Shown here: one piece after another, positions 49,949 through 61,915 of the stretch
Layout of the letters: each line of letters begins with the position of its first letter
Numbering within the stretch: the first letter of the stretch is position 1
Origin: Promethearchaeota archaeon Loki_b32
GTDB taxonomy: Archaea; Asgardarchaeota; Lokiarchaeia; Sigyniarchaeales; SOKP01
DNA length: 64,000 nt
NCBI GenBank assembly: GCA_005223125.1
Contig: NJBH01000017.1
Location: 19,891 to 83,890, forward strand
Direction: 5' to 3'
Notes under the pieces: generated by a model
What the model was told of the DNA's origin: nothing
Databases searched by the model: none
The model's input: the letters and a program-made list of their open reading frames with translations, nothing else
Translations under genes and position numbers: made by a program

Positions 49949-50257
49949 TTATTCTTCTTCTGCTGCCAATTCCTCCTCTAATTCTTCAAGTGGAACTGGT
50001 GCTGGTGTTGTTAACATGCTGTAACCAATCCAAATCGCGATAATTGCTATGAGAATCACTAACAGCCAGAGAGGTGCTACAACAAATAATCTCCAATCAA
50101 GCCAATCGATATCTAAGATATTAAGGAAGGAATCCCAATCTGGGTTATTCCAAATCGTGTCAAATAAGAGATCGACAATTGAACCCATGGTATAAATGAT
50201 AGCGATTAGGATACCAACAATCATGACTAGAGCCCCAATTACTTTATCCTTTGCGAT
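49949..50257 (-). CDS. Small two-TM archaeal membrane protein; probable ATC start (ATG at 50224 lies inside TM1)
   Basis: (I/M)AKDKVIGALVMIVG...WIGYSMLTTPAPVPLEELEEE; AGGAGTTGA 6 nt before ATC, with an in-frame stop just upstream. Confidence 0.7.
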   Translation of the reverse strand: MAKDKVIGALVMIVGILIAIIYTMGSIVDLLFDTIWNNPDWDSFLNILDIDWLDWRLFVVAPLWLLVILIAIIAIWIGYSMLTTPAPVPLEELEEELAAEEE

Positions 50258-50348
50258 TGTAAGTCAACTCCTATATTTTTTTTTAACTTTTGATTCATTT
50301 AATTTAAATTAAATTTAAACAAAAGATTTGTTTAATATTAATGTTAAA

Positions 50349-50403
50349 AAATTATTCAATTAAAACCATTCTATTGAATTAAATTATTCAATTAAAACCA
50401 TTC
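50349..50403. repeat. 23-bp direct repeat (AAATTATTCAATTAAAACCATTC x2, period 32) in a divergent promoter region
   Basis: Exact copies at 50349-50371 and 50381-50403. Confidence 0.8.
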
Positions 50404-50507
50404 GATCAAAGCTATATTGGATCGTAAATAAGATATTTGGATGATCCACAAATAGACTATATAGGAATAATAAAATTATAAAGATAGTAAAACTAAATAC
50501 TAAATTT

Positions 50508-51488
50508 ATGTCTGAAGAAACTGAAACTGAAACTGAATATGTCCTTATTATTGGTTCAAGCAATATGGATTTAAATATTTATTCTAAAAGATTACCAAAT
50601 CCAGGAGAAACAGTAACTGGAGGGACATTTAAACAATTTTTAGGAGGAAAAGGGGCGAATCAAGCTGTCGCATCAGTGAGATCAGGAGCTAGAACTATTT
50701 TCATTGGAAAGATTGGAAATGATTTATTTGGTGATAAAATGATTTCTCGATTGACAGATGAAGGTGTTAATATGGATCATATTTTCAGAGATCCTCAAGA
50801 ACCAAGTGGAGTGGCATTTATCTTAATTGATGAAAATGGTGAAAACATGATAAGTGTAGCACCTGGAGCAAATTTTAATCTAAAACCAGATGAAATTAGA
50901 TCTAAAACTCAAATCATTAAAAATTCATCTTCGATCGTTGTTCAGATGGAAATTCCGATGGATACCATTCAAGAGATATTTAAAATAGCTTCTGAAGGAA
51001 AGGCAATTAAAATTCTAAATCCCGCACCATTAAAAACCATTCCGATTGAAGTTTTACGCAATGTCGATATCATAATTCCTAATGAGGGTGAACTTTTTCG
51101 TTTACATTCTCTATTAGGTTTCAATAATTTAAAAGAAGAGGGAAAACAAAAAATAATTCATATTTCAAAAGATCTTACTAATATAGGGGTAGAATATATC
51201 ATTACAACATTAGGAAACAAAGGATGTATAATTTTTGAAAAAAAGACAGATAAGATTTTTGAAGTAAGTGCTCCTAAGGTTGATGCCGTAGATACAGTTG
51301 GGGCCGGGGATTGTTTTATAGGGGTTTTAGCAAGTATGTTAAGTAAGGGTGAGACTATCTTAAATGCTGTAAACTATGCAACTACAGCAGCTTCAATTGC
51401 GGTTACAAGAAAAGGGGCTCAAGAATCTATGCCTTCTTTAAGCGATATTCAAAATAAATTAGAAAAATTAAATTTAAATGAACAATAA
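50508..51488 (+). CDS. rbsK: Ribokinase
   Basis: GSSNMDL, GGKGANQAVA, LNPAP, PNEGE and DTVGAGDCF motifs. Confidence 0.93.
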   Translation: MSEETETETEYVLIIGSSNMDLNIYSKRLPNPGETVTGGTFKQFLGGKGANQAVASVRSGARTIFIGKIGNDLFGDKMISRLTDEGVNMDHIFRDPQEPSGVAFILIDENGENMISVAPGANFNLKPDEIRSKTQIIKNSSSIVVQMEIPMDTIQEIFKIASEGKAIKILNPAPLKTIPIEVLRNVDIIIPNEGELFRLHSLLGFNNLKEEGKQKIIHISKDLTNIGVEYIITTLGNKGCIIFEKKTDKIFEVSAPKVDAVDTVGAGDCFIGVLASMLSKGETILNAVNYATTAASIAVTRKGAQESMPSLSDIQNKLEKLNLNEQ

Positions 51489-51500
51489 TAGGAGATTAAT

Positions 51501-52175
51501 TTGCAACAAGAAGATATTCACACTAAAAGAAGTACTTTATTGAGAAAGAATAATTCACAAGAATTAAAAATAGAAATAAACCAGAAAAATCTGGAAGATA
51601 TTTTCTTAATCAATGGATCACATTTTATAACTGAAGGGATTCTAAATTCAGATTTAATAATCAAGCCTAAAACTTGTTACATGATAATAAATAATGGAAA
51701 AACCCTACTTAATATCCACTATAACCAAGATATTTCAAACCATAAAATAATGTATGATCCTTATAAATATGAATCATTACAAAGGATTTATTTTAAACCA
51801 GAAATGTTTGAAGAAAGGTATAATATCCCCGAAGGATATATTGACACACTTCCGAAGTGGTATAGCTTTAAATTTACATATCCAGATTATAATTTAATTT
51901 TTATTCGCCCAGAATTTGGTCTCTCAATTCAAACCCATAAATTTAGAAATGAATCTTGGGAAATATTGGAAGGTAAACCAATTATAATCAATGGAGATAA
52001 AGTGTATTATTATGTTGAAACAGGTCAATTATTTCAAAACCCAATTAATACTTATCATTCTATTATTAATCCCAATAAAGATCATAACAAATTTGTAGTG
52101 ATTAAAGAAAGATGGAATGGAAAATTTGACGAGAATGATATAGATCGCGTTTTTAATCCAAATTATTATGAATAA
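51501..52175 (+). CDS. Cupin (type II mannose-6-phosphate isomerase-like) domain protein
   Basis: LSIQTHKFRNESW..H..FDENDIDRV motif. Confidence 0.7.
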   Translation: MQQEDIHTKRSTLLRKNNSQELKIEINQKNLEDIFLINGSHFITEGILNSDLIIKPKTCYMIINNGKTLLNIHYNQDISNHKIMYDPYKYESLQRIYFKPEMFEERYNIPEGYIDTLPKWYSFKFTYPDYNLIFIRPEFGLSIQTHKFRNESWEILEGKPIIINGDKVYYYVETGQLFQNPINTYHSIINPNKDHNKFVVIKERWNGKFDENDIDRVFNPNYYE

Positions 52176-52403
52176 CTCTTTTTTACCTATAAAAAAAGTA
52201 GACAAAAAGCTGTTTCTAATTTAATGTATTAAGATAAGTGAGATTCTCTTCAAAATTTCATCTAACACTTATAAGTTTTATGATTTTTGTTAACCTAACC
52301 TAAAAGTTAAAATTCTAAATAACACTACAAACCTTACCGTAATATGATTTATAAGAAAAAATTTACTTAATAATATAAATGGAATAAGCAGATTGGTTTA
52401 AAA

Positions 52404-52976
52404 ATGGCTCCTGATGAAAAATCTGATGAAGGAAAACAAGAAGAAACAAAACTGGAATCTGGAAATGATTCAGAAGAAAAATTGGATCCTGAAAAAGAGC
52501 TTGATAAGGGAAAAGAATCAGAAGAAGAGGAAATATCTACAACAGAAGAATTAGATACAGAAGCAGAGCTAGACCGACTACGATTCAAATATCGAGGACA
52601 TACATTAGAAGAATTAAAAAAAATGAATATGGATCAATTTATACAATTATTACCAGCTAGAGCAAGACGTTCTTTAAAGCGAGGTTTACCTCCCAGACAA
52701 AAGAAATTACTCGAAAGGTTAAGAAGAGCATATAGAGCTAAGAAAAGAGGGAAGGATTTACTTACTAGAACACATGTTAGGGATATGATAATATTTCCCG
52801 AAATGGTCGGTCTTAAAATTGGTGTTTATAACGGTAGAATTTTTGAAATTGTTGAAATAAAACCAGAGATGATTGGACACTATCTAGGAGAATTTTCTCT
52901 TACAAGAAGACGAGTACAGCATGGATCACCTGGAATTGGAGCCACAAGAAGTTCAAAATACGTTCCATTGAAATAA
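52404..52976 (+). CDS. rps19: 30S ribosomal protein uS19 with acidic N-terminal extension
   Basis: [20 protein letters not shown] and [18 protein letters not shown] motifs. Confidence 0.97.
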
Positions 52977-53002
52977 AAATAATTTAAATGAGATGATAAT
53001 TA

Positions 53003-53482
53003 GTGCCAACTTGGGGTTATTCTTTTATAGAACAGAAATATGATGCAGATCGATTAGCAAAAGCATCTGGTCGAGATATTAGAATTAAACCGAAACACGC
53101 AAGAGAAATTTGCGCTGTAATTAATGGTATGAAAGTAGAGCAAGCAAAAACATTTTTGGAAAAAGTGATCCGCTTAGAACAATCAGTTCCTTTTAGAAGG
53201 CATAAGAAAAAGGGAGCACATAGAAATGATTTAAAACAATTTAAATGGTACTCTGGAAGATATCCTCAAAAAGCAGCAGCTAGAATATATGAAATTCTCA
53301 CATCTGTAGAATCAAATGCAGAATACAAAGGTTTAGATATAGATTTATGCAGGATTATTCATGCCGCAACACATCATGGAAGAATAATAAAAAGATATAT
53401 ACAACGAGCACATGGACGCAGTACAGCGAAATTTAAACATCTTTCTCATGTAGAACTTATCATTTACGAATTCCCGAGTTAG
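53003..53482 (+). CDS. rpl22: 50S ribosomal protein uL22
   Basis: KHAREIC, GRYPQKAA and RAHGR motifs. Confidence 0.97.
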   Translation: MPTWGYSFIEQKYDADRLAKASGRDIRIKPKHAREICAVINGMKVEQAKTFLEKVIRLEQSVPFRRHKKKGAHRNDLKQFKWYSGRYPQKAAARIYEILTSVESNAEYKGLDIDLCRIIHAATHHGRIIKRYIQRAHGRSTAKFKHLSHVELIIYEFPS

Positions 53483-53532
53483 GTTAATTTATGATAAATT
53501 TAAAGTAAGAATTATGAAATAATTGAAAGAAA

Positions 53533-54324
53533 ATGAGTCCATTAGTAAAAAATTTCATTGAACAAGGGATTAAATTGATGCAAATAAATGAATACTTACG
53601 TTCAGAGTTAGTTCGCGCAGGTTTTGCTGGTATCGAGCTACAACGTACACCACTGGGTGTAAGAATTACATTAAAAACATCACGCCCTGGTCTAGTGATC
53701 GGAAAAGGCGGAAAACGAATTCAAGAAATTACAGACATTCTACAAGAAAGATTCAGTCTAGAAATGCCCCAGATAGAAGTTGAAGAGGTCGCAGAGCCTG
53801 ATCTTGATGCTCAAATCATGGCAGAAAGATTAGCTTATTCATTGGACAGGGGAAGGCACTACAGAAGGGCAGGTTATTACATACTCAGAAAAGTAATGGA
53901 TGCTGGGGCTCGTGGTGTAGAAATAATTATCTCTGGTAAAGTTACTTCACAACGTGCACGGGTTCAAATCTTTAGAGCAGGAACTATGTCGAAGAGTGGT
54001 CAATCTGCCCAAGAAGGTGTAGATAAAGGTGTTGCTCAGTGTATACAAAAATCAGGAGTTTTAGGGATAATTGTGAAAATAATGCGAGCTAATACAAGAA
54101 TGGGCGATGATATTAAAATCAAGGATGATCTTTTAACTAAAGCACAAGCAGAACAAGAAGCAAAATTAGTAAAAACACGAGCAGATTATGTGATTGAAGC
54201 AGAAGAGGGTGTTTTAGGCGAAGAAGATAAGAAAATAATTGATGAGGTAGATGAGGAAGAAATTTCCGAGATTTCACTAACTCCGGATATAGAAGATGAA
54301 AAAGTGGAATCAGATAAAGAATAA
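53533..54324 (+). CDS. rps3: 30S ribosomal protein uS3 with acidic C-terminal tail
   Basis: KH domain RPGLVIGKGGKRI; GARGVEIIISGK. Confidence 0.97.
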   Translation: MSPLVKNFIEQGIKLMQINEYLRSELVRAGFAGIELQRTPLGVRITLKTSRPGLVIGKGGKRIQEITDILQERFSLEMPQIEVEEVAEPDLDAQIMAERLAYSLDRGRHYRRAGYYILRKVMDAGARGVEIIISGKVTSQRARVQIFRAGTMSKSGQSAQEGVDKGVAQCIQKSGVLGIIVKIMRANTRMGDDIKIKDDLLTKAQAEQEAKLVKTRADYVIEAEEGVLGEEDKKIIDEVDEEEISEISLTPDIEDEKVESDKE

Positions 54325-54353
54325 TTACATTAATCAAAAAATAGTGGTAAAAT

Positions 54354-54554
54354 ATGGATATTGTAACGGCTGAACAAGTAAGGCAAATGGATGAAAGAGA
54401 AAGAGAAAGAACCTTAATGGATTTAAGAGAAGAATTAATGATGCTTTACTCAATGCAAACTGGTGGAGGGCTTGCTGACAATCCAGCTAAAGCAAAATTA
54501 TTAAGAAAACAAATAGCAAGAATATTAACAATAATGAATGAAGAAAAACGATGA
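54354..54554 (+). CDS. rpl29: 50S ribosomal protein uL29
   Basis: NPAKAKLLRKQIARILT motif; operon position. Confidence 0.95.
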   Translation: MDIVTAEQVRQMDERERERTLMDLREELMMLYSMQTGGGLADNPAKAKLLRKQIARILTIMNEEKR

Positions 54555-54865
54555 GTGATCCAAAATATTTAATATACCAAGATTTAATTGGAAATGTTGT
54601 CTACGCCAAACCCAAATCAAAATCATTTGATAAATCATTTTTAGATATAGGTGTTGTTATCGATGAAACAAGAAATATGTTAATTACTAAAAGGGATAAT
54701 AAGATTAAGAAATATATTAAAAAAGATTATATCTTTAGATTTAAAATACCAAATTACACAAATAATAATGAGGATTATTATTTAGAAGTCCATGGGAATG
54801 AAATTGTTGGACTTCCTATAAATAGACTAAGAAGTTTAAAGAAGAAGAGATGGTTAAATAAATGA
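54551..54865 (+). CDS. rnp1: RNase P protein Rpp29/POP4
   Basis: DLIG and GVVIDETRNML motifs; position between uL29 and uS17. Confidence 0.88.
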   Translation: MSDPKYLIYQDLIGNVVYAKPKSKSFDKSFLDIGVVIDETRNMLITKRDNKIKKYIKKDYIFRFKIPNYTNNNEDYYLEVHGNEIVGLPINRLRSLKKKRWLNK

Positions 54866-55215
54866 GCAAAAACATTGGTATCCCTGGTGTTGTTCCTCCA
54901 AAAGTTAAACCTGAAGAATGTAAAGATCTTTCTTGCCCATTTCATGGAAAAACAAGAATTAGGGGAAAAATTACACAGGGAATTGTAGTTAGTAAGAAAT
55001 CAAAAAACACCGTCATTATAAGACGAGATTATGTTCAATTTATTAGAAAATATCAAAGATATGAGCGTCGTAATACGCGGTTAGCATGTCATTTAACAGA
55101 ATGTTTAAGTAATGAGATAGAAATTGGAGATTTAGTAAGAGTTGGTGAATCTAGAAAGATTTCAAAAACAAAAGCTTTTATAGTTCTTGAAAAAATTACA
55201 GGTGGGGCGGTTTAA
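54862..55215 (+). CDS. rps17: 30S ribosomal protein uS17
   Basis: CPFHG, KYQRYERR and ISKTK motifs. Confidence 0.97.
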   Translation: MSKNIGIPGVVPPKVKPEECKDLSCPFHGKTRIRGKITQGIVVSKKSKNTVIIRRDYVQFIRKYQRYERRNTRLACHLTECLSNEIEIGDLVRVGESRKISKTKAFIVLEKITGGAV

Positions 55216-55641
55216 ATGGGAACGAGGAGGAAATTAGGAAGAAAAACATACAATAAAGCACGCACTAGTTATGGATTATGTAATGGATCAAAAATTATTA
55301 TAGCAGATAATTCTGGAGCTAAAATTGCTCAAATAATTAATGTAGACGGTTTCAAGACACGGTTGAGAAGACTGCCAAAAGCTTCTGTTGGAAGTGTTTG
55401 TACTGTCACAATAAAAAAAGGAAAGCCTGAATTGAGAGGAAATATAGTAAAGGCAGTAATAGTTAGACAGAGAATGATTTATAGACGATTAGATGGGACA
55501 AGACTTTGTTTTGAAGATAATGCAGGAGTAATAATCACTAAAGAAGGAGAGCCTAAAGCCACAGAGGTGCGAGGTCCAATCGCTCGAGAAGCAGCAGAGA
55601 TGTTTCCAAGACTAGCTTCTATATCATCATTAATAATATAA
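55216..55641 (+). CDS. rpl14: 50S ribosomal protein uL14
   Basis: ADNSGAK, FEDNAGVI and GPIAREAAE motifs. Confidence 0.97.
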   Translation: MGTRRKLGRKTYNKARTSYGLCNGSKIIIADNSGAKIAQIINVDGFKTRLRRLPKASVGSVCTVTIKKGKPELRGNIVKAVIVRQRMIYRRLDGTRLCFEDNAGVIITKEGEPKATEVRGPIAREAAEMFPRLASISSLII

Positions 55642-55655
55642 TAGAAGGGTTAAAA

Positions 55656-56084
55656 ATGAAAGTTAAATCAAAACAACCTAGCAAACAGAGAAAAGCATTG
55701 TTTAATTATAGTAATCATCATCGTTCAAAGCTACTTAGCACTAGGGTAGCTGATTTTCTTCGAGATGAATATGGGATAAAAAGACTTCCACTTAGGGTTG
55801 GTGATCAAGTTCGAGTGTGCAGAGGTGAATTCACGGATTTTGAGGGTGAGGTACTTGAAATAACCAAAAATCAAAGATGTAAAATTAAAGAATGTACCTT
55901 TGATAAAACTGATGGAACTCAATTTCATCCTGCAATCCATATATCTAATCTAGTAATTACAAAATTTACTAAAGAAAAAAAAATGGACCCATGGAGAGCT
56001 ATTATGATAGAAAGAAAAGTTTTGTATGGATTTTATGAAGAAGAATTAAAAGGACCAAAGAAAGAGAAAGAGGTGGAAAAATAA
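55656..56084 (+). CDS. rpl24: 50S ribosomal protein uL24
   Basis: SKQPSKQRK, GDQVRVCRG and IHISNL motifs. Confidence 0.96.
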   Translation: MKVKSKQPSKQRKALFNYSNHHRSKLLSTRVADFLRDEYGIKRLPLRVGDQVRVCRGEFTDFEGEVLEITKNQRCKIKECTFDKTDGTQFHPAIHISNLVITKFTKEKKMDPWRAIMIERKVLYGFYEEELKGPKKEKEVEK

Positions 56085-56086
56085 AA

Positions 56087-56842
56087 ATGACTCGACATGG
56101 AACTCAAAAAGTTTTAAAAAGGCTTAATACTCCTGCTTTCTTAAAAATAAAAAGAAAACATGGTAAATTTTTTGTAAAAGCTGCTCCCGGACCACATTCT
56201 AGCAGATTATGTCTTCCACTTCTTCATATTGTTAGAGATCTACTCAAAATTGTTGATACTCATAGGGAAGCGAAAAAATTAATTGTTGCGGGATACTTTA
56301 AAGTTGATGGAAAAAAAGTGAGAAATAAATCATTTCCAGTTGGACTAATGGATGTTATATCGATCGAAAAATTGAATTTACATTATAGAATTTTACCTGA
56401 TTCTCATCATGGCTTAATTTTACACGAGATATCCGAAGAAGAGAGTGGTTTCAAACTATGCAGGATAAATAATAAAAAGACTGTAAAGGGAGGTCATATT
56501 CAATTAAATCTGCATGATGGAAGAAACATTTTGATTAAAGTTCAAGAACCTAGAACTCCAAAGGAGGATATTTACAAACGAATGGACGTGTTGAAAATTT
56601 CTCTTCCTGAACAAGAGATCCATAAAATCCTAAGATTTAAAGAAAATAATATTGCGATTATTATGTCCGGAAAAAATATTGGACAAGTAGGAAAGATTAC
56701 TAATATTTTGAAAAGATTTGGACCAAAAGCTAGTACAGTTTCAATTCAGCAAAATGGGGGTCATACAGAAACCCTATATGATTATACATTCATTATTGGA
56801 GAAGAAAATTCTGAAATAAATATACCTGATTTAGAAAATTAA
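56087..56842 (+). CDS. rps4e: 30S ribosomal protein eS4
   Basis: PGPH, FPVGLMDVI and QLNLHDGRN motifs. Confidence 0.97.
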   Translation: MTRHGTQKVLKRLNTPAFLKIKRKHGKFFVKAAPGPHSSRLCLPLLHIVRDLLKIVDTHREAKKLIVAGYFKVDGKKVRNKSFPVGLMDVISIEKLNLHYRILPDSHHGLILHEISEEESGFKLCRINNKKTVKGGHIQLNLHDGRNILIKVQEPRTPKEDIYKRMDVLKISLPEQEIHKILRFKENNIAIIMSGKNIGQVGKITNILKRFGPKASTVSIQQNGGHTETLYDYTFIIGEENSEINIPDLEN

Positions 56843-56871
56843 ATTGAATAAATAAAAGAAGTGAAAGAATT

Positions 56872-57465
56872 ATGTCAACTAAAACGAAAACTAAAATTCC
56901 GCTCGCACTTTCAAAAGAATTTGACGAAAATTGGAAAAATCCTATGAAAAAACCATATTTAGAAAAGTTGGTTTTAAATATAGGTGTTGGTGTTGGAGGA
57001 CAAGAATTAGAAAAAGCAGCTACCGTTTTAGAAACAATTGCAGGTCAAAAGGCAATTAAGACACTATCAAAAACAAATGTGAAAGAATTTAATTTAAGAA
57101 AAGGACGCCCAATTGGTACTAAAATAACTATTAGGGGTCAAAATGCTGAAAAATTACTTAAAAAATTACTTATTGTAAATAATAATAAGATTTTAAGAAG
57201 AAGTTTTGATAATTATGGAAATTTTGGTTTTGGAATTATAGAACACATTTCTATCCCTGGTATTGAATATGATAATACGATTGGTATATGGGGTTTAGAT
57301 TGTGTAGGTAGAGTAGTAAGACCGGGGATGCGAGTTAAATTTAGAAGAAAAGCGCGTATCAAAATACCCAAACATCATTATATATCACGAGAAGAAACCC
57401 AATATTTTTTAATACAGAAATTTGGAGTTGAAATTGTACAAAAATTAGATTTAGAATATATTTAA
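56872..57465 (+). CDS. rpl5: 50S ribosomal protein uL5
   Basis: NPM, KLVLNIGVG and GNFGFGIIEHI motifs. Confidence 0.97.
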   Translation: MSTKTKTKIPLALSKEFDENWKNPMKKPYLEKLVLNIGVGVGGQELEKAATVLETIAGQKAIKTLSKTNVKEFNLRKGRPIGTKITIRGQNAEKLLKKLLIVNNNKILRRSFDNYGNFGFGIIEHISIPGIEYDNTIGIWGLDCVGRVVRPGMRVKFRRKARIKIPKHHYISREETQYFLIQKFGVEIVQKLDLEYI

Positions 57466-57484
57466 TGAATTTAGGTGAAAAAAA

Positions 57485-57634
57485 ATACCACAAGGGAAAC
57501 ATTACGGTAAAGGCCAGAGAGAATGTAGAAGATGTCATACTCACAGAGGAATAATACGGCGTTACGGATTATATATATGTAGACGCTGTTTTTATGAAAT
57601 AGGAAAAGACATTGGATTTAAAAGATTCGAATAA
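57485..57634 (+). CDS. rps14: 30S ribosomal protein uS14 (zinc-binding type); no in-frame ATG/GTG/TTG
   Basis: [49 protein letters not shown], between uL5 and uS8; missing from the ORF track. Confidence 0.95.
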
Positions 57635-57668
57635 AAATTAAATAAATTGAAAAAAAAAGTGAAAATCT

Positions 57669-58052
57669 ATGGTAAATACAGTATCCGATGCATGTTGCGC
57701 AATCAAAAATGCAGAAAGAGCACGTAAAAATGAAGTGATAATTAATCCAGCTTCTAAGATTCTTCAACAAATTCTTCGAATATTTCAAAAATATGCCTAT
57801 ATTGGAGAATTCGAAAGATATGATGATGGAAGACAAGGTAAATTTAAGATAGCATTATTAGGTAAAATTAATGAGTGTTCAGGCCTAATGAGATTGAATT
57901 ATAAGATTTCTCAATTTGAGATGTTAGAAAGAAAACTATTACCTGCTCCTGGTTTAGGAATAATAATTCTAACAACAAATCAAGGAATAATGACAATGAA
58001 TGAAGCAGAAGAAAAACAGATCGGTGGTCATGCTTTATGTTATATTTATTAA
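57669..58052 (+). CDS. rps8: 30S ribosomal protein uS8
   Basis: IKNAE, YIGEFE..DDGRQGK, LLPA and TTNQG motifs. Confidence 0.97.
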   Translation: MVNTVSDACCAIKNAERARKNEVIINPASKILQQILRIFQKYAYIGEFERYDDGRQGKFKIALLGKINECSGLMRLNYKISQFEMLERKLLPAPGLGIIILTTNQGIMTMNEAEEKQIGGHALCYIY

Positions 58053-58074
58053 AATACTACGAGGTAAATACTAA

Positions 58075-58653
58075 ATGGTAAAGATAGCGTTCTTTAAGGA
58101 AGAATTGGAAATTCCTTCAGATGTAAAAGTTACCTTGGAAGGTGGGCATCATATTCGAGTTAAAGGACCAGAAGGTGATATTACAAAAGATTTCTCGCAT
58201 ATTAGAGGTATCAAAGTCTCAATTGATAAAAATCATATTATTTTTACCACTAACTTTCCTAAAAGTGGGACTTTAGCATTAATTAAAACAGTAGTCAGTA
58301 TTATTAACAATTTAATTATTGGCGTTCAAACAAATTACAAATTTATATCAAAAATTTGTTACTCACATTTTCCTTGCAATTGTGAGGTGAAATCAGATAA
58401 AAAAGAGATTCACGTAGTAAACTTTTTAGGAGAAAGAGCCCCAAGAAAGGCTAAGTATCCCGAAAATGTAAGAGTAGAAGTAGAAAGTGATGATGTATAT
58501 TTTATAGGTCCAGATAAAGAAGCCTTAGGACAAGCAGCAGCTAATGTTAAAAGAGCTTGTCGTATTAGAAAAAAGGATCCCCGTGTTTTTCAAGATGGAG
58601 TTTACTTATACAAAAAAATGCGTGGAGATGAAATTATCTGGGAAATAACATAA
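58075..58653 (+). CDS. rpl6: 50S ribosomal protein uL6
   Basis: YSHFP, NFLGE and KDPRVFQDGVY motifs. Confidence 0.97.
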   Translation: MVKIAFFKEELEIPSDVKVTLEGGHHIRVKGPEGDITKDFSHIRGIKVSIDKNHIIFTTNFPKSGTLALIKTVVSIINNLIIGVQTNYKFISKICYSHFPCNCEVKSDKKEIHVVNFLGERAPRKAKYPENVRVEVESDDVYFIGPDKEALGQAAANVKRACRIRKKDPRVFQDGVYLYKKMRGDEIIWEIT

Positions 58654-58668
58654 AACAAGGTGACTTTT

Positions 58669-59187
58669 ATGGTACAAGATAAAAGATTAATGGAACTTCG
58701 AAAAAGAATGAATAAAAAAAGACCTTCATTTAGACGGGTGGAATCTTGGAGATATAAAAGAGTAAAAGATTCATGGAGAAAAGCTAGGGGTATTGATTCA
58801 AAAACTAGAAAGAAAAAAAAATCTGGAGTAAAATCTCCAACTGTTGGATATAGATCCCCAAAAAAAGTAAGAGGTTTACATCCGTCAGGTTATATAGAAG
58901 CAAGAGTCACCACAATACAAGAATTAAATAATTTAAATAAAAATCAACATGCTATTAAGATTTCTGGCAAATTAGGAGCAAAGAAACGTTTAGCTCTAAT
59001 CGATTTTTGTCAAAAAAGGGGTTTTAAAATATTAAACCTTGGAATATCACAAAAAGAAATTGAAAGTTTAGAAGCGATGGCAGAAGCTCCGATATCTGAG
59101 ATGGAAGACGAAGAATTTATTGATGTTGATGATTTAGAAGATTCTATAGATATGGAAGATAAAATTACTAAGAAACAGAGGAGATAA
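58669..59187 (+). CDS. rpl32e: 50S ribosomal protein eL32 with acidic C-terminal tail
   Basis: WRKARGIDSK and GYRSPKKVRGLHPSG motifs; ATG 5 nt after GGTGA. Confidence 0.96.
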   Translation: MVQDKRLMELRKRMNKKRPSFRRVESWRYKRVKDSWRKARGIDSKTRKKKKSGVKSPTVGYRSPKKVRGLHPSGYIEARVTTIQELNNLNKNQHAIKISGKLGAKKRLALIDFCQKRGFKILNLGISQKEIESLEAMAEAPISEMEDEEFIDVDDLEDSIDMEDKITKKQRR

Positions 59188-59190
59188 AAT

Positions 59191-59652
59191 ATGAATCTTA
59201 AACCACAAAAAAGAATGTCGGCTGAAATTCTTAAGTGCGGAGAGAATAGGGTTTATTTTGATCCTTACTTAATAGAAGATATTTCACTAGCGATTACTCG
59301 AGAAGATATTCGCAATTTAATAAAACAAGGTGTAATACAGAAAAAATATAAGAAGGGTGTCTCGAAATACAGAAAAAACTTAAGACATGAAAGAAAGAAA
59401 AAAGGAAGAGGTAGAGGGTTTGGAAAACGAAAGGGTACAAAGCATGCTAGAACTCCAAAAAAGAGAGCTTGGATTAGACGTATTCGCCCAATTAGACGAG
59501 AATTGAAAAAACTTCGGGATCGAAAATTAATTACAGTAGCTAACTATCGAAAATTATATAAGAATGCTAAAGGTGGAATGTTCAATAGTGTTGCTCAAAT
59601 GAATAGATATATAAAAGAAAAAGAATTGATACGAAGAGGAAGAGGTAGTTAA
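59191..59652 (+). CDS. rpl19e: 50S ribosomal protein eL19
   Basis: QKRMSAEILKCGENRV, AITREDIR and KGG motifs. Confidence 0.97.
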   Translation: MNLKPQKRMSAEILKCGENRVYFDPYLIEDISLAITREDIRNLIKQGVIQKKYKKGVSKYRKNLRHERKKKGRGRGFGKRKGTKHARTPKKRAWIRRIRPIRRELKKLRDRKLITVANYRKLYKNAKGGMFNSVAQMNRYIKEKELIRRGRGS

Positions 59653-59654
59653 AA

Positions 59655-60248
59655 ATGGCAAGAGGTCCAAGGTATAGAAGATCGTTTCGACGACGTAATG
59701 ATGGTAAAACAGATTATCATAAAAGGTTAAAATTGTTAAAATCAAGAAAACTGAGAGTAGTTATTCGAGCTTCAAATGATCATATTAGAGTTCAAATTAT
59801 TCAATCAAAATTAGGTGGAGATAAAGTCTTAATCTCTACTTTTTCTAAAGAATTAACTTCAAAATATGGATGGAATGCTAATACTGGAAACATCCCCGCG
59901 GCTTATTTAACTGGTTATTTAGCAGGACTAAGAGCAAAAAATAAAAATATACAAGATGGAATTTTCGATTTAGGTATCTTTTATCACAGAAATCGAGTAC
60001 TTGCAGCTTGTAAAGGATTAGTAGATACCGGAATAAATATTCCTTATCGGGAAGAATTTTTTCCAAAAAGTTTAGAAAATAGAATTAAAGGTATTCACAT
60101 TGAAGATTATGCGAAAACTTTAAAGTCAGATGAACCGGAAATATATGAGCAGTTATTTTCTGGTTACTTAAACAAGAAAAAAATAAATCCATTGAAAATA
60201 AGTCAAATGGTTTCAGATTCATTAAAAAAAATTGAAAATAGTATTTAA
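59655..60248 (+). CDS. rpl18: 50S ribosomal protein uL18
   Basis: RRRNDGKTDY and NIPAAYLTG motifs. Confidence 0.97.
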   Translation: MARGPRYRRSFRRRNDGKTDYHKRLKLLKSRKLRVVIRASNDHIRVQIIQSKLGGDKVLISTFSKELTSKYGWNANTGNIPAAYLTGYLAGLRAKNKNIQDGIFDLGIFYHRNRVLAACKGLVDTGINIPYREEFFPKSLENRIKGIHIEDYAKTLKSDEPEIYEQLFSGYLNKKKINPLKISQMVSDSLKKIENSI

Positions 60249-60259
60249 AAGTGAAAGAA

Positions 60260-60874
60260 ATGAGTCGTTTAAGAAATATTGATGAAGAATGGATCCCAAA
60301 GACACGCTTAGGCGAGTTAGTTCAACAAGGGCTTATGACACTAGATAAAATATTTCAAAATAATTTAGTAGTTAAAGAAAAAGAAATTATAAATATTCTC
60401 CTGCCACAATTACGTGAAGATGTTGTGACAATCAAGATGATTCAGAAGATGACAGCTAGTGGACAACGCAGTAGATTTAAAGCAGTTGTAATTGTCGGTG
60501 CAGATAGTTTTCTTGGTGTTGGAGCATCTAAAAGTAAAGAAGTTGGCCCCGCTATTAGGAAAGCAATTGATAAAGCAAAACTTTCTGTTGTTCCAATCCT
60601 TAGAGGTTGTGGTAGTAAGGAATGTGGATGTGGGGGAACTCATAGTATCCCCTTTAAAATTAAAGGAAAATGCGGTTCAGTTCGGATTCAATTAATACCC
60701 GCACCAGTAGGAGTAGGTTTAGCTTGCGCAGATAAAGTTAAACAAGTATTAAGATTATGCGGCATTGAAGATGTCTGGAGTAAGACTTTTGGTGATACAA
60801 GAACAAGTGAAAATCTAGTTAAAGCAACATTTGACGCATTAAAAAAAGCTCATAAATTTAACTTTAATATATAA
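60260..60874 (+). CDS. rps5: 30S ribosomal protein uS5
   Basis: WIPKTRLG, QKMTASGQR, GKCGSVR and NLVKATFDAL motifs. Confidence 0.97.
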   Translation: MSRLRNIDEEWIPKTRLGELVQQGLMTLDKIFQNNLVVKEKEIINILLPQLREDVVTIKMIQKMTASGQRSRFKAVVIVGADSFLGVGASKSKEVGPAIRKAIDKAKLSVVPILRGCGSKECGCGGTHSIPFKIKGKCGSVRIQLIPAPVGVGLACADKVKQVLRLCGIEDVWSKTFGDTRTSENLVKATFDALKKAHKFNFNI

Positions 60875-60891
60875 AAAAGAGTGATGTAAAA

Positions 60892-61416
60892 ATGGCTATG
60901 GCAAAAAAAAAATCGAAATCAAAGGAAACAAACCTTACTCCAAAATTATACTTCGCTGTTCGCATCAGAGGAGCTCCAGGGATGAGAGGAAAAATATTAG
61001 ACACCTTAAAGATCCTTAGAATGCATAAAGTAAATCATGGTGTGCTCCTATGGGGTACTTCTTCGTATAGGGGAATGCTTTTAAAATGTAAAGATTATAT
61101 TGCTTATGGAGAAATTGATGCAAAAACACTGATTAGATTATTAAGAGTAAGGGGAAAAGTCGAAGGTAATAAATCACTAACAGAGGAGCATATAAGGAAC
61201 CTAACTAATTATAAAAATTTTAGAGAACTAACTAAAGCACTATTAAATGGAGAAATACAATATCGAGAAAAAGATATCTATAAAATAAAACCAGTATTCC
61301 GATTACATCCTCCAAGAAAAGGACATAAAGGCACTATAAAGAAACATTACAATGAAGGTGGGACTCTTGGTAATGTTGGAATATTTATTAATGTATTAAT
61401 TCATAAAATGATATAA
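60892..61416 (+). CDS. rpl30: 50S ribosomal protein uL30
   Basis: AVRIRG, YIAYGEI and FRLHPPRKG motifs. Confidence 0.96.
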   Translation: MAMAKKKSKSKETNLTPKLYFAVRIRGAPGMRGKILDTLKILRMHKVNHGVLLWGTSSYRGMLLKCKDYIAYGEIDAKTLIRLLRVRGKVEGNKSLTEEHIRNLTNYKNFRELTKALLNGEIQYREKDIYKIKPVFRLHPPRKGHKGTIKKHYNEGGTLGNVGIFINVLIHKMI

Positions 61417-61432
61417 TCAAAAGGTGACAACT

Positions 61433-61915
61433 ATTACAAGAAAATATCCAAAAAAAGCCCAGAAAATGAGAGGAAGTCGTACTCATGGTTATGGGAGAGT
61501 AGGCCAACATAGAAAAACTGGTCAACGTGCAGGGAGAGGGAAGACTACTCAATGGAAAAAAAGTAAAAAGAGTTATTATTTAAAACAAAAAGAACTTGGA
61601 TTTCCAGATCCTGATTGGGATATGGGAAAGAAAGGTTTTAAAAGACCTCAAGATATTGTCAGGATTTATCAGGTAAATACTATTAATGTTAAAGATTTAG
61701 ACCAAAATATTGATAATTTCGTTATAGATAAAAAAGCTACTAAATCTGGAAATACTTACAATATTGATTTAAACAATATTAATATACAGAAGATTTTGGC
61801 TCGTGGTGAACTCAACAAAACAATAAATATAACCGTCAATAAAGCTTCAAAAAGAGCGATTGAAAAAGTAGAAGCTGCAGGTGGTAAACTAACTATATTA
61901 TCTCAAGCAGAATAA
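61433..61915 (+). CDS. rpl15: 50S ribosomal protein uL15 (start probably ATT at 61433; GTG at 61424 lies within the SD-like motif)
   Basis: RGSRTHGYG, GKKGF and ASKRAIEKVEAAGG motifs. Confidence 0.95.
   Translation: MTRKYPKKAQKMRGSRTHGYGRVGQHRKTGQRAGRGKTTQWKKSKKSYYLKQKELGFPDPDWDMGKKGFKRPQDIVRIYQVNTINVKDLDQNIDNFVIDKKATKSGNTYNIDLNNINIQKILARGELNKTINITVNKASKRAIEKVEAAGGKLTILSQAE

Follow-up and report, generated by a model that had tools for sequence, protein, structure and literature searches.

Isoleucine codons as probable translation starts of rps14, rpl15 and a gene for a small membrane protein in Loki_b32 and its relatives

Introduction

A 64,000-nucleotide (nt) stretch of the Loki_b32 genome, hereafter the window, raises the question of whether isoleucine codons can serve as translation starts in this archaeal lineage. 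In an earlier note on this DNA, three genes had been described in which a Shine-Dalgarno (SD) sequence is followed at short distance by an isoleucine codon: ATA in rps14 (uS14), ATT in rpl15 (uL15) and ATC in a gene for a small membrane protein. It had been proposed there that these codons initiate translation. All three layouts are present as described. Comparison with relatives makes it very probable that ATA 57485 (rps14), ATT 61433 (rpl15) and ATC 50257 (membrane protein gene) are genuine translation starts. Such sites are best read as members of a defined, SD-dependent class of start sites that appears to be common in the family. In the following, ATA, ATT and ATC are collectively termed ATH (AUH in mRNA), and ATG, GTG and TTG are termed canonical.

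Reviews of archaeal translation initiation give AUG, GUG and UUG as the only start codons (PMC7531240, PMC4705826). In a profiling study of H. volcanii near-cognate sites were encountered and put aside (PMC7261190). A literature search of incomplete coverage yielded no description of a lineage-wide rule of AUH starts.

The Loki_b32 genome (G000) is a 95%-complete metagenome-assembled genome (MAG) of 4.13 Mb with a GC content of 30%, distributed over 71 contigs. The 3' end of its 16S rRNA reads ...GGATCACCTCCT, and AGGAGGTGA is therefore the correct template for SD pairing. For rps14, 40 relatives and then 80 genomes of the family were searched, and start codons were tallied in 32 genomes of the genus and 63 of the family in total. 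The rpl15 set comprised 78 genomes of the family, retrieved from public MAGs by their Promethearchaeota or Promethearchaeia labels, in which the L15 N-terminus was located by tblastn anchoring. The membrane protein gene was compared in 24 genus genomes, with six outgroup loci displayed in addition.

Results

The most direct case is rps14 (57485-57634, plus strand; 49 amino acids (aa) and the stop codon TAA at 57632-57634), which is preceded by rpl5 with its stop codon at 57463-57465. The SD sequence AGGTGA (57473-57478, plus strand) is complementary to the 16S rRNA 3' end and is followed by a 6-nt spacer, ATA (57485-57487), CCA and CAA. The TGA contained in the SD sequence (57476-57478, plus strand) lies in frame two codons before ATA and closes the frame upstream. 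When the frame was scanned to its stop codon, no in-frame ATG, GTG or TTG was found. The product matches Pfam family PF00253 with 25 bits, just below the cut-off of 27. It carries a CxxC...CxxC zinc motif, its gene occupies a ribosomal protein (r-protein) operon position, and the cluster is named S14 by both NCBI and JGI. The gene is single copy in Loki_b32, and nearly all of the searched genomes with a match likewise contain one copy. Directly upstream, ATG 57465 overlaps the rpl5 stop codon (TAATG) and opens a 30-codon frame (57465-57557, plus strand) across the start of rps14; this overlap is not conserved in relatives and probably meaningless.

In the 32 genus genomes the codon preceding Pro-Gln of S14 is ATA (18), ATT (12) or ATC (2), and nothing else. 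The set includes two closed single-contig assemblies (G006 and G023), both with an ATH codon. The SD sequence is kept in all 32 genomes, and the open frame at most of these loci comprises just 51 codons, as in Loki_b32. The spacer between GGTGA and the start codon drifts among relatives (AAGAAG, AGGAAG, AATAAA, AATACG, ATTAAG and AGAGGT), and the position of the ATH codon is kept. In the 12 other genera of the family the start codon is ATG, TTG, GTG, ATA or ATT. The 63 family genomes together have ATA in 24 cases, ATT in 14, ATC in two, ATG in 15, TTG in six and GTG in two. In other families of the order, rps14 has ATG and a longer N-terminus.

The second gene, rpl15 (61433-61915, plus strand), encodes a clear member of Pfam family PF00828 (E = 1e-15; 58 bits with a cut-off of 21.5). 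Here AGGTGA (61422-61427, plus strand) is followed by the 5-nt spacer CAACT, ATT (61433-61435), ACA, AGA and AAA, so that the protein would read (M)TRKYPKK. Two canonical codons are in frame near this site in Loki_b32: GTG 61424 (61424-61426), which is contained in the SD sequence, and ATG 61466, which lies 11 codons inside the gene. Most genus genomes have AGGTGA-N6-ATT-ACN-AGA-AAA with TGA in frame and GTG out of frame, often with a further ATH codon directly before ATT. ATT is preferred over GTG 61424 because most relatives thus have the TGA of the SD sequence in frame and lack a usable GTG. Among the 78 family genomes, 32 have ATT (in the context ATT-ACN-AGA/CGA-AAA), 45 have ATG at the aligned codon or one codon to either side, and one has TTG. 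In two outgroup genomes the sequence is ATG-ACG-CGN-AAN-TTT (MTRKF or MTRNF), with ATG aligned to the ATT of rpl15. Four species with ATT (L302, L305, L307 and L311) have no Met ahead of the conserved RG.R.HG motif of L15. Any canonical start is thus missing from rpl15 in L054/L302, L305, L307 and L311, and not strictly so in Loki_b32. On the L15 gene tree, eight switches between ATT and a canonical codon are needed, a count lowered by one if the row L283, mis-scored as ATT, is corrected; at least three switches are forced by well-supported branches.

The third gene (49949-50257, minus strand) encodes a 102-aa protein in which hydrophobic stretches are combined with an acidic tail. Its SD-like sequence AGGAGTTGA (50272-50264, minus strand) consists of AGGAG (50272-50268) and TTGA (50267-50264), contains an in-frame TGA (50266-50264) and is followed by a 6-nt spacer and ATC (50257-50255). 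ATG 50224, 11 codons downstream, is not preceded by an SD sequence. Upstream of the gene lies an AT-rich intergenic region of 250 nt, and its translation is therefore not coupled to that of an upstream gene. The N-terminal sequence xAKDK[VI]IGA recurs in each of the 24 genomes of the genus, and outgroup families have it too. Its first codon in the genus is ATG (10), TTG (4), ATA (5) or ATC (5). ATG is present at each of the six outgroup loci displayed, in five of them at the aligned position; in the sixth (L086) ATG lies two codons upstream, which gives an extended N-terminus. The codon corresponding to ATG 50224 (Met-12) encodes Ile or Val in two species with an ATH codon (L071 and L084). The gene consequently lacks any canonical start in these two species, and not strictly in Loki_b32. 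The protein is conserved across the order. A weak, sub-threshold match to Pfam family PIG-P (PF08510; E = 7e-4, 19.9 bits with a cut-off of 39.3) was also seen. PIG-P is a subunit of the eukaryotic glycosylphosphatidylinositol-N-acetylglucosamine (GPI-GlcNAc) transferase.

The alignment across relatives that had been proposed in the earlier note thus gave the expected picture: in all three genes the isoleucine codon alternates with ATG, TTG or GTG at one and the same position. Initiation at AUH is further supported by the constancy of this position next to a drifting spacer, and by the fact that ATH is the sole possible start in rps14 and in some orthologs of the other two genes.

Where coding begins was also assessed from the mean pairwise differences between orthologs at codon positions 1, 2 and 3. 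In the ten codons following ATT of L15 these values were 0.09, 0.15 and 0.30, respectively. Codons 2 to 11 gave 0.10, 0.11 and 0.45 in S14, and 0.06, 0.00 and 0.50 in the membrane protein gene. The 6 nt before the start codons of the three genes gave 0.11-0.33, 0.36-0.57 and 0.63-0.66. Variation biased towards the third position hence begins straight after the ATH codon, and the preceding 6 nt vary at all positions. Judged by this signature, the sequence after ATH is translated, and the spacer before it is not.

The nature of the start codon is linked to the quality of the SD sequence. As the genomes compared are related and not independent, the following percentages describe a pattern and do not represent independent trials. 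For S14, an SD match of at least 5 nt was present in 96% of the orthologs with ATA and in 93% of those with ATT, at a spacing of 6 nt in most, and in both orthologs with ATC (5 and 6 nt); the corresponding values were 7% for ATG and 17% for TTG, with scattered spacing. The membrane protein gene had such a match in all ten ATH orthologs, invariably at 6 nt, and in one of the ten ATG orthologs, whose spacing was mostly 5 nt. All ten ATH orthologs of this gene in the genus have AAGGAGTTGA-N6, and the ATG orthologs have sites of the AAAGGTTAT type. For L15, the match was found in 100% of the ATT orthologs (6 nt in 27 of 32) and in 82% of the ATG orthologs (spread over 2-9 nt). Taken together, an SD match of this length is present in 93-100% of ATH orthologs, with a spacing of 6 nt in almost every case, as compared to 7-10% of the ATG orthologs of rps14 and the membrane protein gene. 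Such coupling is the pattern expected where a weak codon needs an optimal SD sequence. The strict pairing of ATH with a strong SD sequence, almost always at 6 nt, also argues for a defined class of sites over general sloppiness of initiation. As to the two causes considered in the earlier note, relaxed start-codon fidelity and translational tuning, the sequences are compatible with either.

The alternative that survives best, though it is unlikely, is that only rps14 uses its ATA codon. In that case rpl15 would start at GTG 61424 or ATG 61466 and the membrane protein gene at ATG 50224, and the upstream ATT and ATC would be plain isoleucine codons or untranslated. Canonical codons are indeed in frame in both genes, public gene calls take them, and coupling is conceivable for GTG 61424, which lies 8 nt past the stop codon of rpl30. 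However, this GTG is part of the SD sequence itself, leaving zero spacing, and is out of frame in most relatives. The 10-11 codons before the internal ATGs are conserved as protein and change mainly at third positions. In addition, the ATG of outgroups coincides with the ATH position in rpl15 and, for the membrane protein gene, in five of the six outgroups displayed, and the internal Met is absent from some orthologs of rpl15 (L302, L305, L307 and L311) and of the membrane protein gene (L071 and L084). Finally, ATG 50224 has no SD sequence of its own.

A different route to the S14 frame might be offered by a run of eight A residues (57478-57485, plus strand), to which AGGTGA contributes its final A, the spacer six residues and ATA its first A. 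Ribosomes starting at ATG 57465 could shift by -1 on A-AAA-AAA, a classical slippery heptamer, or those starting at GTG 57475 could shift by +1; in Loki_b32 one A more or fewer would join a canonical start to the S14 frame. This run is particular to Loki_b32. Most relatives have no A run, and the slippery site is not conserved. A conserved mechanism in which the ribosome shifts frame, or transcription slips, downstream of ATG 57465 or GTG 57475 can hence be dismissed. Relatives retain GGTGA-N6-ATH with varied spacers, and many of them lack the TAATG overlap. We regard this explanation as very improbable.

To place the three sites in a wider context, the window and the genome were scanned for SD-led codons. 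In the window, the three sites are the sole ATH codons that combine an SD sequence of at least 5 nt at a spacing of 5-6 nt with a nearby in-frame stop codon or open reading frame (ORF) boundary, at least 45 open codons and the absence of an adjacent ATG. Their SD matches comprise 5-6 nt at spacings of 5-6 nt. The genome-wide GGTGA scan that had been suggested earlier was performed on sites at which the TGA of GGTGA is in frame with the codon following N6. As this TGA is in frame, a frame that opens 6 nt later must start there. Of 333 ATH codons at this position, 28 were followed by 100 or more open codons. The corresponding numbers were 23 of 167 for ATG, GTG and TTG, and five of 989 for eight control codons (AAT, TAT, TTT, ACA, AGA, TTA, AAG and GAA; Fisher p = 5e-13 for ATH versus controls). 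ATH is thus strongly enriched, being about 17 times commoner than control codons after GGTGA-N6 ahead of a long open frame.

A stricter class was confined to codons with an SD match of 5 nt or more at a distance of 5-7 nt, a stop in the same frame no more than six codons upstream, and 80 or more open codons. In Loki_b32 this class contained ATG (82), ATT (31), TTG (26), ATA (18), ATC (8) and GTG (7), i.e., 57 ATH and 115 canonical codons, with 104 sites distributed over the 58 other codons together. When SD-led codons were binned by their distance from the upstream stop, the excess near the 5' ends of ORFs amounted to about 96 for ATH versus about 260 for canonical codons. From these numbers we estimate that on the order of 100 genes may begin at ATH, which corresponds to 2-3% of about 4,000 genes and to about a quarter of the strongly SD-led starts. 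Clear cases in Loki_b32 include the genes for uL16 (ATC), a CopA HMA domain (ATA), a DJ-1/PfpI protein (ATT) and a rubredoxin-like protein (ATT), in the last of which the next canonical codon is 162 codons downstream. When codons among the first 12 of long ORFs were scored for a preceding SD sequence, the signal was weak (1.8-1.9% for ATA and ATT, a background of about 1%, and 6% for ATG), because codons beside real starts and ATGs that are not starts dilute this statistic.

These scans also bear on the idea of codon-independent initiation, according to which an SD sequence or a terminating ribosome would start translation at any codon 6 nt on, with ATH merely reflecting AT-richness. The idea gains some appeal from the internal position of two of the three genes in an r-protein operon and from the GC content of 30%. 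Yet only ATH, ATG, GTG and TTG occur at these positions in the 63-78 orthologs, and other AT-rich codons never do. Genome-wide, AAT, TAT, TTT and TTA at the same spacing do not precede long ORFs, and the membrane protein gene, located behind its 250-nt AT-rich intergenic region, is uncoupled. We consider this explanation to be scarcely credible. The likelihood that the ATH codons are sequencing or assembly errors in a MAG of 71 contigs, or that the genes are decaying pseudogenes, is negligible, as the same layout recurs in dozens of independently assembled genomes, closed chromosomes included, and the genes are single-copy, essential and under purifying selection. A-to-I editing of AUA to AUI had also been considered as a candidate and was dropped, as it cannot account for ATT or ATC.

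Several points weigh against initiation at the ATH codons. In Loki_b32 itself, ATG 50224 is usable in frame in the membrane protein gene, and GTG 61424 is in frame in rpl15 and located such that a ribosome reinitiating past the rpl30 stop could use it; a GTG 61424 start of rpl15 in this one genome is the doubt that remains, and it may still apply there. The species tallies overstate the number of events, the genomes compared being relatives, and the L15 tree is based on 148 columns and poorly resolved. The case for the three starts rests on sequence comparison.

The habit appears weaker, albeit not absent, in a sister family. In 1.2 Mb of the closed genome G032, the stricter class comprised five ATH versus 37 canonical codons, as compared to 57 versus 115 in Loki_b32 (p = 0.007), and a few of the five sites look real; 400 kb of sequence from each of two genomes other than Loki_b32 did not suffice for such a comparison. 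Three probable ATH starts of G032, located at positions 98101, 351766 and 826344 of the concatenated sample, belong to an FtsX-like permease gene (AGGTGA-N6-ATA), a ribbon-helix-helix-like gene (AGGAGG-N8-ATT) and a third ORF (AGGTGA-N6-ATT).

Next, the components that might read AUH were inspected. One gene for an initiator-type tRNA was recognized by pattern search (C48:102823-102970, plus strand). The encoded tRNA has A1, GGG/CCC in the anticodon stem and a CAU anticodon, and the gene apparently contains two introns, the first past the anticodon loop and the second in the region of the T arm. No further initiator-like tRNA, with a different anticodon, emerged from this search, tRNA detection being incomplete. 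ARAGORN and Rfam recovered just 15-21 tRNA genes in Loki_b32; most tRNA genes are probably split by introns, hence the low detection. The ARAGORN candidates include tRNA-Ile genes with GAU and UAU anticodons. An intron-containing tRNA-Ile (UAU) and a doubtful 'tRNA-Stop (tta)' with a 78-nt intron were reported at C38:42157-42260 and C48:118159-118320 (both minus strand). The candidate tRNA-Ile (UAU) would read AUA directly.

The gene for initiation factor aIF1 also appears to follow the ATH habit. In Loki_b32, a canonical start codon is absent before the zinc knuckle of aIF1. All 22 genus genomes compared have GGTTGTGA-N9-ATT, with TAA two codons before ATT. In eleven further genera of the family, GGTNGTGA-N9-ATT was found in ten (with ATC in most of g16), and ATA in g19. 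The upstream in-frame stop is usually the TGA of the GGTNGTGA motif, and TAA in genus g1. In seven genomes of the sister family the aIF1 start is TTG, GTG or ATA, and never ATG. A second aIF1-like copy, about 60% identical, was seen in some genomes of the family, namely G007 (C18:24883-25194), G060 (C2:79571-79882) and G083 (C23:10882-11193), and the copy in G007 has two in-frame TAA codons.

Discussion

The comparisons suggest a simple scheme for initiation at AUH. The SD sequence of the mRNA, being part of AGGAGGUGA, would pair with the 3' end of 16S rRNA and thereby put the codon located 5-6 nt downstream into the P site. There the ordinary Met-tRNAi with its CAU anticodon would read AUH with a mismatch at the third base. 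We infer that it is Met-tRNAi that does this reading, and that the first residue is accordingly Met. The family would accept the combination of SD and AUH often enough to serve essential, highly expressed genes. As a consequence, ATG, TTG, GTG and ATH would swap at one start position over evolutionary time.

By analogy with known systems, aIF1 might set the level at which AUH is accepted, and its own ATT start would then give rise to an infC-like feedback loop. The full proposition is that SD at 6 nt plus AUH forms a regular third class of start sites, used by 2-3% of genes and gated by aIF1, whose own AUU behind a sub-optimally spaced SD would provide feedback of the infC or eIF1 type. We put it forward tentatively, rating it somewhat below an even chance. 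The aIF1 of S. solfataricus was reported to reject AUU in vitro in 30S complexes (PMC4705826).

The closest bacterial counterpart is infC, the gene of IF3, which has an SD-led AUU start and is subject to translational autoregulation (Butler et al. 1987, as cited in PMC4705826). Similarly, ebpA of E. faecalis has an ATT start behind an SD sequence (PMC4447247). Shared with infC are the near-cognate AUH behind an SD sequence, its presumed reading by the initiator tRNA, and a fidelity-factor gene with a conserved AUU. Unlike in bacteria, the machinery of Loki_b32 is of the archaeal and eukaryote type (aIF1, aIF1A, aIF2 and unformylated Met-tRNAi). Moreover, usage is not restricted to one or two regulatory genes, as with infC, but is estimated at 2-3% of genes, including those for uS14, uL15 and uL16. 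The autoregulation established for infC is, for aIF1 of the Loki family, suggested by analogy.

In eukaryotes, eIF1 gates near-cognate initiation and autoregulates through the poor context of its own start codon (PMC4705826). In both systems a homologous factor (e/aIF1) polices the codon-anticodon pairing in the P site and has a weak start on its own mRNA, which in the Loki family would likewise close a feedback loop. By contrast, eukaryotes rely on scanning and Kozak context and the Loki family on SD sequences, and the Loki sites serve essential r-protein genes. In yeast, the efficiency of AUU and AUA was reported to be less than 1% of that of AUG (PMC4705826).

AUH codons are routine starts in animal mitochondria as well as, presumably, in the Loki family. 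Starts at AUA, AUU and AUC are provided for in NCBI translation tables 2 and 5, and mitochondria have an altered code (AUA = Met) and a modified tRNA-Met. Unlike mitochondria, Loki_b32 has candidate tRNA-Ile genes with GAU and UAU anticodons, and its ATH sites are SD-dependent.

Within the Asgard archaea, AtubA, a tubulin gene in a MAG of the Kariarchaeaceae, has been suggested to begin at a single 'rare ATT start codon' (PMC13394414). As in the genes studied here, the deposited N-terminus is too short and an upstream ATT is found at a plausible distance from a ribosome-binding site. That proposal is, however, a remark on one gene in a methods section, without a lineage rule, r-protein or aIF1 cases, or a comparative test.

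If the proposed aIF1-gated class is real, factor-gated near-cognate initiation would predate or parallel the eukaryotic system in a close archaeal relative of eukaryotes. A family with AUH starts on r-protein genes and on aIF1 would indicate that discrimination at the third base can be relaxed or tuned in a system of the aIF1/aIF2 type. It would offer a natural system in which to study the control of start-codon stringency by e/aIF1 close to the transition from archaea to eukaryotes.

There are also practical implications. Gene finders restricted to ATG, GTG and TTG would truncate or lose proteins of Asgard MAGs, and misplaced starts affect structure prediction, the inference of eukaryote-like proteins and estimates of completeness. 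The systematic mis-annotation foreseen in the earlier note is borne out in part. The deposited membrane protein begins at ATG 50224 (91 aa) and thus lacks 11 residues, and for L15 two different starts are on record, GTG 61424 (163 aa) and, by other pipelines, ATG 61466 (149 aa). S14, on the other hand, is already called from ATA by NCBI (49 aa, with M at ATA).

Other genes of the window share the geometry of rpl15 with a canonical start. The in-frame pairs of GTG and ATG that had been listed for rpl32e (58660/58669), rps5 (60251/60260) and an HxlR-like gene (63333/63324) are real, each separated by 6 nt. All three correspond to (G)GTGA-N5-ATG.

Finally, public record titles for the Loki_b32 family look unreliable. 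MAGs whose L15 is 79-86% identical to that of Loki_b32 bear the phylum names Hermod-, Hod-, Odin- and Thorarchaeota as well as Promethearchaeota; loci with such mixed names include L248, L249, L254, L259, L264 and L269.

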